In this document: positions 5,370 to 64,000 of the stretch, piece by piece
How positions within the stretch are numbered: position 1 is the first letter of the stretch
Layout: each line of letters opens with the position of its first letter
Origin: Eledone cirrhosa
Taxonomy: Eukaryota
NCBI GenBank assembly: GCA_964016885.1
Contig: OZ024753.1
Span: forward strand, 15,500,001-15,564,000
Direction of reading: 5' to 3'
Length of the DNA stretch: 64,000 nt
Translations under genes and position numbers: made by a program
The notes under the pieces: model-generated
Told to the model about the DNA's origin: nothing
What the model saw: the letters and a program-made list of their open reading frames with translations, nothing else
Database searches by the model: none

Positions 5370-6390
<1,021 letters not shown>

Positions 6391-8214: not shown

Positions 8215-11200
8215 AAAAGAAAACCCCGTGACCAAGAAATACCGGGATGGCGGCTGGCGGAAAATAGCCGTGTCTCTCGGGGAGGACGACTCCTCTAGTC
8301 TTGGGTGACACTCGTCCTAGAAGTGGTAACACGAAATGATTACCCCTTGGCGGTTAAGGATAAAACGCGACAAAATAAAGTAAATGTCAAATGATAAAAT
8401 CTCAAACCGGATCGGCCGTCACCCGGGTCAAAAAGTGCCGCGTCCCTCAGAGAGGAACCAGACTGGGGTCGAAAAATCAGCTAATGGTTCAAACCTTCCC
8501 ATCACTTCGGAGCTGGAGACCTCCCATAACTGAAATACTCCTACTGTTAGCCGTCCATGCTCACCACCAAGAAATCCAAAGAAAGAGAGAGAAAAATGGT
8601 CAAGGGAAGACAATAAAGAAGTCCTTGAGGCTTTCTACACTGCCATGTACTGCCCATCAAATACATCGAATACAGAACAGACATATATCAACTGGAAAAA
8701 GAAACATCCCGAAAACAGAGGCTATATTGACAGTAACAAACTAGTCAATATACGAAGAAATATTGTTAAAAAGAAGTTACTAACTGATATAGAAATTGAT
8801 CAGATCAAGCTATTAGCACAAAGTCAGCGAAGGGAAAATGAAACATGTGTCAGTGAAAACGAGACATATTGTAACACTTCGAATCCCAGGGTTGGGGCGG
8901 AATCACTGACAACAAAACAAATTAAAGAAAGGATCGAAAAAGTGGAGGGAGTGCATGCTCAAGATGAAACTCAAAATGGAAACAATGAGATCATAAATGA
9001 TAAAGAAATGAATGAGAATGAACTTGCCAACTTGAAGGATGAAATTATGATCGAATGGATGAAAATGAAAGAATCTGACATGGGGGAATGAGACACTCTC
9101 CCTAAGAACCAGAACTCCAAACAGAACCAAAAGATAATACACAAGACTAACATAATTCTCAAAAACATTATCATCACAAACAAGCTAAACATTACTGATC
9201 TAAATCATCTCTATTATACATCGGCTAAAGTCACCACTCACTTATGTGGAGTGAAAATGAAAAAACAAAGGAATTTCTACAAGAAATCTACTTGGCAAGA
9301 GAACATCAATCGCCAAATAAACCTTCTCCGATCTGATATAGAAATTTTAACAAACTACAAAGTAGGTGAACATGTTAAACAAACTAAAATACAGTATAAA
9401 ATCAACAAGTGACATAGACGTGCTGATAGAGATAATCAAGTGTCGGCCAAAGCTGCTCGTATAAGGCGCTTTGAAAAACGATCTAGATTCTATAAGGACA
9501 ATAATATGTTCAAAAACAACCAAAGAAACTTCTACAGAAAAATTGGCAAGTCAACAATAACTGCTAAATCCAAGGAAGAAGTGCAAGAATTCTGGGAAAA
9601 GATTTGGGCCGAAGAAAAAGTTCATAATATACATGCCCCATGGATAGACAGACAAACGAAAGATACAGCTCACCTTGAGGAACAAACATGGGAAAATATA
9701 ACAGTTGAACAGTTGCGTTTGGCTCTAAGAAAAACCAGCAAATGGAAATCCCCAGGAAAAGACAAAATACCAAAGTTTTGGATAAATGCCTTCACAGAGT
9801 CTCATGAGCTGTTAGCCCAAATTTACAATGAAATAGTTAAGGGGCCAGAAAAGATACCATCATGGCTAGTTAACGGCATTACATTCCTACTTCCGAAGAA
9901 TGATGAAACAAACAATCCCAAAAATTATAGACCGAAAACTTGCTTGACCACAGTGTATAAAATTTTAACATTAGTCCTAACTAAATATGCATATCACCAC
10001 CTGATAACAACTGATATATTTCCCAATGAGCAGAAAGGGTGTAAACGAGGCTCATATGGCTGTAAAGATCAGCTTTTGGTTAACAAATTGATACTGGAAG
10101 ATTGTCATAATAGACACAAAAATCTATCAATTGCTTTGATAGATTATAAAAAAGCATTCGATAGTTTGCCAGACAGTTGGATTGAAAAATGTTTAGAGAT
10201 TTTCAAAATATATCCCGTTGTTAGGAGGTTCTTGTCATTCAGTATGAAGACATGGAAAACGACACTCCTTTTGAATAGTGAAAAAAAAATCACTGGAAGC
10301 TGGAGAAGTTAATATTAATTGTGGAATTTTTCAGGGTGACTCTTTATCACCGCTTTTATTCTGCATCGCACTTATACCATTAAGTAAAATGCTCAATGAA
10401 ACAAAACATGGATATAAAGTCTATGAGAAAACCATTAATCACTTGTTCTACATGGATGACCTGAAACTATTTGCAAAAAATCATGAACAATTGCAAGGGG
10501 TATTATCCACTTTGAAGCAGTTCAGTGATGACATTGAAATGGAGTTTTGACTAGATAAATGCGCCAAAGCAACGTTCACCAGAGGAAAGCTGCTGAAAAG
10601 TTCAGACATTAATCTTGATCGGGGGAATGTGATAAGAGAACTTGATCAAGAGGAAACTTACAAATATCTAGGTGTTTGTGAAGGAGACGGAATCAAGAAC
10701 TCGACAATGAGGGAAAGGATAAGGAAGGAATGTTACCACAGAGTAAGAGCAATTTTAAGAACGGAATTTAATGCAAGGAATAGGATCGATGCCATAAACA
10801 CGCTTGCCATACCAATAGTAACCTACAGTTACAATGTCATCAACTGGTCAAGCACAGAGATCCGTAGGCTCGATACAAAAATTAGAAAATTCTTAACCAT
10901 ATACAGAATGCATCATCCTAAGGCAGATAGAGATAGAATATATCTCCCTAGGAAAGAAGGTGGACGTGGGTTAATCCAGTTAGATATTGCGTCGAAAACT
11001 GCAAAAATTGGATTATCTACATATCTAATGGAATCACATGATTGGATGATCAAACTCGTTTTGAAACACGAAAGCATCAAAAGATCATACTCCATTACAA
11101 AAGATGCACAAAGATAGAGTAATGGACTACAAATTTCAGAAGTTTCATATACTGCTGAAATGGAAAACACAGAAAAAGCAAAGCAGGTAAAAGTAACTGC

Positions 11201-12145
11201 AAAGAAAGAACTGCTACAGAAACTGGCTAAGAAATGGCAAGAAAAGCCTCTGTATGGAAAATACCCAGAAAGAGCTAACAATCCTGATGTTGACAAAACT
11301 TTAACCCATCAGTGGTTGGCATCCTCTGGACTGAAATCGGAGACTGAAGGACTGATTATATCAGCACAAGATCAGTGTCTGTCAACAAAAAATGACCAAG
11401 CCAACATAATAAAAAATGGATGCAACCCATTATGCCGTGTATGTAAAAAGCAACCAAAGACCATTGATCATATAATTTCAATGTGCAGTCCTATAGCTCC
11501 AACCGAATACCTAAACATGCACGACAGAGCTGCACAATACATACATTGGATAATGTGTAAGCATTTTGACCTGCCCCATCAACAGAATTTGTGGGAGCAT
11601 CAACCACCTCCCATACTTGAAAAAGTTCACATCTCAATCTTGTGGAACTTTAGCATCCAAACAGACCGAAAAATAGATGCAAATAGACCTGATTTTAATA
11701 CTGAAGGATTTTAAAAAGAGGGTATGTCTGCTAATTGATATGTCCGTTCCAATAGACGAGAATGTATCTATAAAAACATTTGAAAAATTGAGCAAGTATA
11801 AGGACCACGAGATAGAAATTGGAAAAATGTGGAAATTGAGAACTAAAACAATACCAGTGGTTGTAGGCGCTCTGGGAATGATACCTAAGGGATCTAATGA
11901 TTACTTATCGCAAATCCCAGGAAACCAGCGGTATAGGAGAAATACAAAAGATAGTACTAATGGGAACTGCCCATATACTAAGGAAGATTCTGTCAATATA
12001 AGTACATCACAAGTCTAAACACCTAAAGATGCATGTGTGTGTATGTATGTTCTTTCTTGAACATGGTGGACCTTGTTGTCTCTTTAGGTCACTGGTTGTG
12101 ACTTGGTGATAACTCGTATGAACATAAAGCAAGATAAATGCAACT

Positions 12146-13503: not shown

Positions 13504-13582
13504 TCATTCTATTACACGTATTTCGAAGATGCCAGAGTGGTTACATAATAAGCGCCTGGCATGTTTTCATCAGATGGAGTAA
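13504..13582 (-). ncRNA. Hammerhead motif with degenerate stem I
   Basis: Minus strand reads TACTCCAT-CTGATGA-AAACATGCCAG...CTGGCATCTTC-GAAA-TACGTG-TA-ATAGAATG. Confidence 0.55.
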
Positions 13583-19069: not shown

Positions 19070-19111
<42 letters not shown>

Positions 19112-19167
19112 TTATAGTGACGAAACATAAGTCAATTGCATGAACTCATATTTTGAACTCATTATTT

Positions 19168-19223
19168 ACTGCTATATATATTTCGATGATAACCATTGAA
19201 TGGCTATGACCTCATCAGGCAGT
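19168..19223 (-). ncRNA. Type-I hammerhead ribozyme
   Basis: Minus strand reads ACTGC-CTGATGA-GGTCATAGCCATTCAATGGTTATCATC-GAAA-TATATA-TA^-GCAGT, with a long stem II and palindromic stem III. Confidence 0.82.
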
Positions 19224-19549
19224 TAGTCAGTTCTTAGATATGCCAGCTCTGTGTTTCTAGTGTTGATGGTATCAGAGCCTTAGGACATATGAGCTTGTTA
19301 GGAATAATTTAATGTTGTCAGCAGGAATAGTCTTAATTCTCATTGGTCAGCTTGTAGATGCTAGTAGGGTTAGTATTTGAGCTCAAAGAGGCAGGTGATG
19401 TTGTAAAGTTCAAACCGACAGGCAAGATGACAATAGTTCCATAGGACTGATTTTCACAAAAAGCATTCCTGGTCAGATATATATTCAATTAAGTATGAAA
19501 TAGATACTACAGGTCATTCTTAAATTGAGGATATATTTATTTATATATA

Positions 19550-19960
19550 TATTAACAATATTAATAAATGGAAAATATCTTTACAAAATCATATTTATTT
19601 TATATTATACGTATTTCAAGGGTACACATTTTTAAGTACGCTTTCGTCAGATAAAATATAATATTTGGTGTTAAGATAGTGACATATCTTCATGTGAACT
19701 TAATGGTATAAGCGCAGTGAAGATTGGGCTTATATAATTAAGTTCACACCAAACATTATATTTTATTTGACGAAAGCGTTCTTAAATATTAGTACCCTTG
19801 AAATACGTATCATAAAATAAATATGGTTTTGTAAAGATATTTTCCATTTATTAATATTGTTAATATTAATGATACTCCAGAAAATCTTTAGAGTGCTTCT
19901 AATCTGTTGTAAAATTAACTTTGTTGAATAATCAACAAACCATATAACTCATTGTTTATA
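19550..19960. mobile_element. Fold-back element (family B) with HHR motifs on both arms: ~19598-19658 (-) and 19759-19819 (+)
   Basis: Inverted arms of ~150 bp; cores CTGACGA and TTGACGA, then GAAA-TACGTA-TH-ATAAAATA. Confidence 0.8.
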
Positions 19961-19974
19961 TATATATATATATA

Positions 19975-20377
19975 TATGCAAAAGTTATATTTAATTTGTT
20001 GGGATTCAACAAGCTTAACATTTTATAACTGATATGAAGCACTCAACAGTTTACTGGAGTAAATATTCAATATATTAATAAATGGAAACTATATTTATAA
20101 AACCATAATTATTTTATTATATATATTTCAAGAGCAACCAAGGTAAATTTTGGTGCGCTTTCATCAGATAAAATACAAAATTTGTTTTATAAATGTTGAC
20201 ATACCCGCGGAAAAACAATCTTGACGGTTAAATGTTCTCTGGATCTGTCAACATTTATAAAACAAATTTTGTATTTTATCTGATGAAAGCGCACCAAAAT
20301 TTGCCTTGGTTGCCCTTGAAATATATATAATAAAATAATTATGGTTTTATAAATATAGTTTCTATTCATTAATATAT

Positions 20378-20378
<1 letters not shown>
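19975..20378. mobile_element. Fold-back element (family B) with intact HHRs at 20110-20175 (-) and 20272-20337 (+)
   Basis: TATTTTAT-CTGATGA-AAGCGCACCAA...TTGGTTGCCCTT-GAAA-TATATA-TA^-ATAAAATA on both inverted arms. Confidence 0.85.
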
Positions 20379-20417
<39 letters not shown>

Positions 20418-63500: not shown

Positions 63501-64000
63501 GTGGCCAGCTATTCCGTATGTAAACACACAGACAAACCGGTTTTTAGAGTCATACTGGTTTTTGAGGAAACACCTTTCCTCTATTCTCCAGAAAGCCAGA
63601 CAAGGAATATTGAACTAGTTTCGTTGTTGTTACAACTCATCAGCAATATTTACCTATCTTCCGGCCTCTCTAGAGAATCGTAAAAGCACATAGCGTTATA
63701 TGCTTTTTCTATGAAAATTAGTAGTGGGCAGACTAATTTGCATAGAGTGTGAGTAAGTACCGGTTCAACGGAGACGATAAAAACAAATAACGAAACGAAA
63801 TTAAATTTCGTTTCGTTTGTAACTCACTTTTGTATGACTGACGCTTAAACAATTAAGTTAAAGATGTACATCCATATATGTATACTGAAATACTAGTATG
63901 TATATGAATACACACACGTATACATATGTAGATGTACCAAGTTTTTTTCACTGGTCACTTTACTGTGAGTGGCCAGCTATTCCGTATGTAAACACACAGA
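60501..64000 (-). repeat. 468-bp tandem array (~7.5 apparently identical units, runs off the window), retrozyme-like
   Basis: Units start at 60501, 60969, 61437 and so on; the ORF track repeats with period 468; one HHR per complete unit. Confidence 0.97.
60798..60842 (-). ncRNA. Type-I minimal hammerhead ribozyme (repeated at 61266, 61734, 62202, 62670, 63138, 63606)
   Basis: Minus strand reads AATATTG-CTGATGA-GTTGT-AACA-ACAAC-GAAA-CTAG-TT^-CAATATT: perfect core, 7-bp stem I, 5-bp stem II, palindromic ACTAGT stem III. Confidence 0.92.

Follow-up and report, generated by a model that had tools for sequence, protein, structure and literature searches.

The window (the whole 64,000-nucleotide stretch of Eledone cirrhosa DNA analyzed here, positions 15,500,001 to 15,564,000 of contig OZ024753.1) contains two adjoining fold-back elements of the repeats called family B, E1 (19549-19957) and E2 (19978-20379), whose B ends are linked tail to tail by a (TA)n run at 19958-19977. 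As the original prediction had stated, there are two of them side by side, each with a short arm paired with an inverted arm about 90 nt longer; both are about 400 bp in length, AT-rich and flanked by (TA)n runs. The outer end of the short arm is termed A and that of the long arm B, and arm positions are counted from X, a 5' stop described below. In E2 the paired arms (20068-20206 and 20241-20379, 139 nt) are 96% complementary. The long arm (19978-20244, minus strand) includes the B-to-A tail at 19978-20067, has its 5' end at X+4 and carries a hammerhead motif at 20110-20175 (minus, core at 20167), while the short arm (20246-20379, plus strand) has its 5' end at X+47, carries a hammerhead at 20272-20337 (plus, core 20280, predicted cut after 20329) and terminates at site A, past which lies a (TG)n/(TA)n flank (20380-20414). 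The arms of E1 are paired in two blocks, 19549-19603 with 19812-19866 and 19593-19686 with 19731-19824. Its short arm (19549-19686, minus) ends at site A beside a short TA run and has a hammerhead (19594-19655, minus) with a 2-nt insertion adjoining the cut site; the unpaired center (19687-19730), 44 nt between the arms, holds the junction of both 5' ends; and the long arm (19731-19957, plus) has site A at 19866, an A-to-B tail at 19867-19957 and a hammerhead (19759-19820, plus) in which U3 replaces C3. On the arms of both elements the hammerheads read outwards from the center.

A strict scan for type I hammerheads detected 13 cores in the window, seven of them in a separate 468-bp tandem, versus a mean of 0.07 cores in 30 Markov shuffles. 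In an alignment of 18 motifs, 95.4% of the cells are base-paired and both sides vary in 15 of the 21 pairs, which none of 500 shuffles matched (the statistic ignores kinship, and the structure was drawn from the same sequences). Covariation is seen in all three stems, and the conserved core of a type I hammerhead is present, as had been noted at first. Stem III is a 6-nt palindrome, stem I has 8 bp, pair 10.1-11.1 is mostly A-U, and stem II, correctly described earlier as mostly paired but wrongly as unrelated between sites, keeps one layout throughout (3 bp followed by a C.C or C.U mismatch and a longer stem). The shared CTGANGA/GAAA core is damaged in several motifs (U3 in the E1 plus arm, the 2-nt insertion in the E1 minus arm, C9 at 5486, A8 at 31053). 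There was no hammerhead match on family B among the Rfam matches listed (150 of 235); the HH9 matches among them (37.7 bits, gathering threshold 52) sit on the 468-bp tandem, and most of those listed are microRNA models on (TA)n.

The calculated cost of folding the hammerhead is +2.4 kcal/mol for the motif alone, +7.1 in the parent repeat and +84 to +86 in the whole palindrome, on either strand. The antisense arm precedes the ribozyme in a read-through RNA and would pair with it, making self-cleavage of such transcripts unlikely; the arm duplex is predicted to be favored over the hammerhead fold by about 85 kcal/mol, and the likely outcome is dsRNA. In published tests the minimal hammerheads of Penelope-like elements showed no activity as monomers and little as dimers, the type with a 6-nt palindromic stem III required dimers or protein, and a protein-assisted ribozyme was reported for the anole Penelope-like element (PMC11167929). 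The cut site lies 50 nt before A, and X, A and B are all away from it. Taken together, these results give no support to the view that transcripts would be cleaved from either strand.

A hammerhead on each arm, initially proposed for all seven sites in the window, was confirmed at three of them: E1, E2 and a related A+B palindrome at 30500-30958 (hammerheads 30627-30692, minus, and 30844-30909, plus). The other four have one each. A related copy at 5378-5666 (plus) combines a long arm, whose single hammerhead (5478-5538) has C at position 9, with a short inverted piece that carries none. In a related subfamily at 30951-31190 (ends approximate) the hammerhead is on the A arm only (30991-31061, minus, A at position 8), the B arm beginning downstream of it, and at 40455-40710 (plus, ends approximate), also a related subfamily, an A arm with a hammerhead at 40602-40668 is accompanied by a short inverted tail piece. 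The motif at 13504-13582 (minus) is a relative as supposed, but a more distant one: it is a lone hammerhead of another Penelope-like family, with flanks that by eye resemble those of locus L092 and not E2. A coding but truncated element of a different Penelope-like family lies at 48366-50034 (plus). It has a GIY-YIG ORF (48802-49368), a hammerhead of U3-A8 core at 49756 and the layout of family B: after a (TA)n run come a short inverted A arm, the body, the B end and again (TA)n. It was rejected as the partner of family B because its terminus differs. Elements often lie end to end with one common TA run (E1/E2, 30500-31190, L003, L176, L082), as if each insertion supplied the target for the next one.

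When the genome (3.0 Gb) was searched with E2, 2174 candidates were obtained, of which 40 were scored and 23 fetched. All 23 copies have end A on one side and end B 90 nt further on the other, with (TA)n beyond, i.e., the outer ends are paired A+B in 23/23 E2-type palindromes (21 by script; L002 and L018 resolved by hand), and the query had stopped at A on both sides without the tail. Under a model in which the ends are freely chosen with equal odds, the chance of this result is about 1e-7. Inverted pairs of the other family, that of the coding element at 48366-50034, are likewise A+B in 11/11 cases (33 loci). The insertion in (TA)n noticed at first is confirmed: a (TA) run is found within 6 nt of the long end in 23/23 copies and of the short end in 18 of the 21 copies that a script could place (one of the three misses, L001, was mis-picked), and the (TA)n on both sides masks any target-site duplication.

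The central junctions fall into 26 types in 31 copies (18 overlaps, 12 insertions and one blunt joint), and three of the four recurring junctions swap which arm is long. The junction insert duplicates adjacent sequence in L193 and L196, L181 restarts part of one arm, and head-on X-to-X joints with small inserts are found in L193, L195 and L196. One junction is common to L002 and L003 and has the same orientation in both, as would also be expected if a palindrome were copied whole. The variable junctions and the one-sided tail of 90 nt bear out the absence of fixed terminal inverted repeats that had been anticipated. The distance between arms is 2.0% within a copy and 3.7% between copies (0/20,000 permutations, with the interrupted L018 left out); mirrored variants are present in 20/27 copies, 12 of the variants being private to one copy, and no alignment column separates A arms from B arms. 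The closeness of the arms of one copy and their mirrored variants thus indicate that both arms came from one template or were homogenized later, and gene conversion between the arms after insertion could be an alternative source of the mirrored variants. The A arm extends further 5' in 17/22 copies (p=0.017). A motif scan of 390 kb sampled at even steps found 24 arms, compared with none in three shuffles: 3 arms in 140 kb of the four largest contigs and 21 in 250 kb of the others, which extrapolates to roughly 100,000 arms genome-wide. E2-type long copies also occur every ~50 kb along G000:C1:217328286-217712298, suggesting a large segmental tandem.

The 5' stop was examined in 20 loci obtained with an exact E2 motif, a non-random sample (15 consecutive unpaired matches plus 5 pairs, from the first 100 of 135). 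Five loci pass X by more than 110 nt and continue into a pyrimidine-rich UTR. The other 15 end at X or downstream of it, 11 of them within -2 to +5 of X; no locus of the 20 ends between -110 and -3. Five of the 15 short copies have no inverted partner in the 700 bp fetched and are solo arms, and in L183, L189 and L192 the solo arm begins at X beside (TA)n. Exact-motif counts were 198 for the endonuclease, 606 for X-50, 2521 for X+17 and 8625 for the hammerhead, a threefold rise over 1.5 kb (198 to 606) followed by a fourfold rise over the 70 nt across X (606 to 2521), in counts that mix subfamilies and with motifs that match long copies at unequal rates (18, 26, 15 and 23 of 30). An earlier upstream motif (94 matches) was found in 2/30 long copies of the larger subfamily and was replaced. 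Within one subgroup 64 arms reach X+8 and 12 reach X-45, a few arms being missed where the upstream word of 10 bases has mutated; in the long-UTR set one arm of L150 ends at X-48. The sequence at X, CCACT, is similar to TCACT, an initiator-like word in a rotifer repeat (PMC3846280), and transcription of Drosophila Penelope begins inside the repeat, from an internal promoter in the pseudo-LTR (PMC2377424). We infer from the sequence that X may be the transcript start of the parent RNA, although it could instead be a pause site of the reverse transcriptase (RT). In long copies (L143-L172, L182-L199) a ATTTGCAT word, which we take to be the octamer motif, is kept about 50 nt upstream of X; if this word belongs to the promoter, the short copies are without it.

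The parent element was traced through L085, a locus found by sampling 39 stretches of 10 kb, in which a GIY-YIG remnant is followed by 1.35 kb of UTR and the family B terminus; its protein gave at least 150 scored matches with 90-100% identity. Among the longer loci 5/5 carry the family B terminus (86-88% identical to E2), and 4/5 have RT/GIY-YIG frames of 362-622 aa with a YRDD-type RT motif and a C-terminal nuclease; 21 of 30 GIY-YIG loci extend to the UTR beside X within the flank. The 135 matches of the exact E2 motif include the tandem pair L198/L199, an E2-type tandem of 4.1 kb containing a full-span but decayed RT and GIY-YIG element (covered here except for 1.2 kb in the middle). The E2 arms are 95-96% identical to the pseudo-LTRs of this tandem (long arm versus the 5' pseudo-LTR L198, 248/262; short arm versus the 3' pseudo-LTR L199, 134/139), and the E1 long arm is identical to L198 at 177 of 218 aligned bases, which places E1 in another subfamily. 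Both L198/L199 and L173 have the order repeat-ORF-repeat, a partial tandem with the hammerhead inside the pseudo-LTRs. In the parent, X is followed by the hammerhead (X+81), site A (X+180), site B (X+270) and an ATG 55 nt later; next come the RT and GIY-YIG domains, a 3' UTR of ~1.3 kb and a second copy of the repeat. Since the parent runs 55 nt past B to the ATG, A and B are internal to the 5' UTR, and both are located at AT-rich words that resemble the (TA)n target. Long parents were found for all three subgroups tested.

The proteins contain, as read by eye, CNCRNKSNC, one Cys between the tyrosine motifs, CSLC, CKH and RWR; RWK and DKT are in frame in L054, and the DKT of the parent was read from the DNA of a frameshifted copy. 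Atlas neighbors had RVT_1, GIY-YIG and HTH_animal at 0.94-0.98, and a Pfam search of two proteins of related families gave no RT or GIY-YIG family match. By these motifs, the parent is classified in the Hydra clade of Penelope-like elements (PLEs), which in PMC8557442 is described with a C-terminal GIY-YIG, a CxCX5C linker, no CCHH between GIY and YIG, CxxC and CxH near the C end, RWK/RWR and DKT motifs, a hammerhead, (TA)n targets, an inverted truncated copy and a tail on one end only. Coding elements sharing the terminus, as a Penelope-like origin would have it, are represented by L085, the five longer loci and L198/L199. The unit here is 4.1 kb, compared with <3 kb in the published description, its tail is ~90 nt (130 nt in the other family) compared with 30-40 bp given for PLEs, and most copies are repeat-only stubs (PMC8557442).

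We propose that family B consists of paired short cDNA copies of the pseudo-LTR of this Hydra-clade element, made anew at each insertion, a reading that we consider probable. The endonuclease would cut both strands of a (TA)n target, and the two DNA ends would prime at different sites, A for one and B for the other, probably on a single uncleaved RNA. With priming in the 5' repeat both cDNAs would be limited by the RNA 5' end at X, or stop earlier, and so be comparable to retroviral strong-stop DNA, a short cDNA terminated by the 5' end of its RNA template. The rarer long copies would come from priming in the 3' repeat. The A-primed cDNA would lead, which fits the longer reach of the A arm (17/22), and the two cDNAs would be joined head to head via microhomology or short insertions. 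The hammerhead would be inherited cargo, locked in a 139-bp duplex within the palindrome, and read-through transcripts should therefore form dsRNA and not cleave themselves. The palindrome itself does not look like the spreading unit, because the junctions differ from copy to copy, the arms are renewed together and the three subgroups tested have long parents. In vitro the anole element has two internal RT starts, extends both target strands and uses uncleaved RNA as template, and the start site of its protein is the same for both strands (PMC11167929), so that the strict A+B pairing is left unexplained by that system. More tentatively, and at somewhat less than even chances, the stubs may be fossils of Penelope integration itself, in which one RNA with two fixed internal priming sites, one per target strand, yields mostly strong-stop pairs. 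If this is true, the one-sided tail, the inverted head-to-head arrangement and the pairs of hammerheads on opposite strands would all follow from a single rule.

The leading alternative, which we consider unlikely though it can coexist with the two-cDNA model, is a self-propagating non-autonomous family, in which short copies starting at X would retain an internal promoter and be transcribed, acting as templates in trans. It would be in keeping with the Drosophila Penelope promoter lying inside the pseudo-LTR (PMC2377424), with the description of non-autonomous Penelope-like elements (PMC8557442; bioRxiv 10.64898/2026.07.22.740005), with an excess of short arms over long ones of about 4 to 1 or more, and with the 12 private mirrored variants in 27 copies, which imply many source templates. 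Yet 3/3 of the tested subgroups have long parents, the junctions are mostly not inherited, and the transcript of a short copy would be inseparable by sequence from that of its parent. The term non-autonomous derivative, used in the original prediction, is apt insofar as the pieces have no coding content, but a distinct lineage that copies itself was not found.

Self-priming or fold-back on an antisense template, in place of two target-primed cDNAs, is a rather improbable source of the inversion. Fold-back was proposed for the head-to-head inversions with junction palindromes of rotifer Penelope elements (PMC3846280), it would likewise give arms from one template, and 18/31 junctions overlap, several of them at an internal hairpin. 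An A-primed strand folding back, however, has no template for the A-to-B tail, and from a B-primed strand an A arm reaching further 5' would be impossible, although that is the case in 17/22; the X-to-X head-on joints with small inserts (L193, L195, L196) are a further difficulty. Fold-back alone would not account for the tail and the longer A arm together. Perfect palindromes have an unstable center, and the junction microhomology is consistent with repair, so that longer perfect palindromes might have been inserted and later lost their centers, gene conversion keeping the arms alike; this would predict neither the pile-up at X, nor solo arms from X beside (TA)n (L183, L189, L192), nor the A-arm bias, and it is very improbable. 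A DNA MITE with long terminal inverted repeats, for which a length of ~400 bp, AT-richness, a palindromic form and TA flanks would speak, can practically be dismissed, the 90-nt tail at one end having no inverted mate, the real termini not being inverted repeats, the center being variable (26 junction types in 31) and the sequence being the end repeat of an RT and GIY-YIG element whose coding parent has the whole terminus; the predicted Penelope-like origin is supported accordingly. A tandem non-LTR retrozyme was also rejected, since the arms are inverted and the ribozymes lie on opposite strands and not head to tail on the same strand.

Two paired cDNAs, the reading preferred here, have partial counterparts in known systems. 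In LINE-1 twin priming two primers are used on one RNA and the products are joined by microhomology; LINE-1 inversions copy non-overlapping parts of the RNA, whereas the two cDNAs of family B would start at two fixed sites and cover one and the same stretch. Poseidon of Anolis, PAc (Frangieh et al. 2024, PMC11167929), is alike in that two internal RT starts define the tail, both target strands are extended and uncleaved RNA is the template; its start sites are in the ORF, whereas those of the family B parent are AT-rich words of the 5' UTR, and the accessible text of that paper reports no A+B pairing rule or 5' strong stop. The minimal hammerheads of PLEs (Cervera and De la Pena 2014, PMC4209133) have a long helix II, a small palindromic helix III and much covariation, as here, and in Schistosoma occur as opposite-strand pairs 100-700 bp apart; family B differs in the mostly A-U pair 10.1-11.1, the 8-bp stem I and the fixed C.C mismatch after 3 bp of stem II, and ends and junctions of such pairs, which the portion of PMC4209133 available to us does not map, are mapped here. 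Animal non-LTR retrozymes (bioRxiv 10.64898/2026.07.22.740005) are similarly short, non-coding, pseudo-LTR-derived and equipped with a type I hammerhead, but are arranged head to tail with same-strand ribozymes, unlike the head-to-head, opposite-strand arrangement of family B. Inverted truncated copies, one-sided tails and (TA)n targets were already described for PLEs, the origin of their tandem and inverted structures being named there as open (PMC8557442).

The counted A+B rule and the 5' stop were not found in the literature searched, which lay outside Repbase, most subscription journals and supplements, and none of the Penelope papers listed contains the word strong-stop. These two points may be what is novel, and relatives may already be among the Hydra families of the PMC8557442 supplements. 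The products of family B are short, countable and number in the thousands; with their two fixed starts and single stop, they open the A+B rule and the 5' stop to tests in the available in vitro system and to 5' end mapping. In genome annotation such repeats would be mislabeled as MITEs. If the proposed origin is true, insertion by this route has seeded the genome with ~100,000 arms, many of which could form dsRNA hairpins for ADAR editing or small-RNA silencing; in the frog palindromic repeats drive hyper-editing, and in the octopus hairpin-forming loci make up an unusually large fraction (PMC5625713). The repeat landscape of the genome studied here gives an octopod-like impression.

Several other elements were seen in the window and related loci. 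A further hammerhead family adjoins E1 at 19110-19490 (core 19218, minus; also L108:4870-5300). It has the same C.C mismatch and consists of a lone arm, ~380 nt long, with a TA run on either side. At 43500-44590 there is a 1.1-kb A+B inverted pair of another Penelope-like family (cores 43607, minus, and 44343, plus). The families of 48366-50034 and L024-L063 are abundant and of the Hydra type (60,913 candidates, of which 150 were scored); their hammerheads have a U3-A8 core and a very long stem II, and frames reach 801 aa in L054 and 766 aa in L055. A 1076-aa endonuclease-RT frame at 51837-55067 is putatively of the LINE type, and a fragmented RT at 8534-11714 probably of another non-LTR type. 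The 468-bp head-to-tail hammerhead tandem, which is retrozyme-like, occupies 60501-64000 (and L067/L068) next to a 4-kb (TA)n run; it continues for 7 more copies past the window, flips near L067:3100 and is followed by 23 copies on the opposite strand, forming a head-to-head array.
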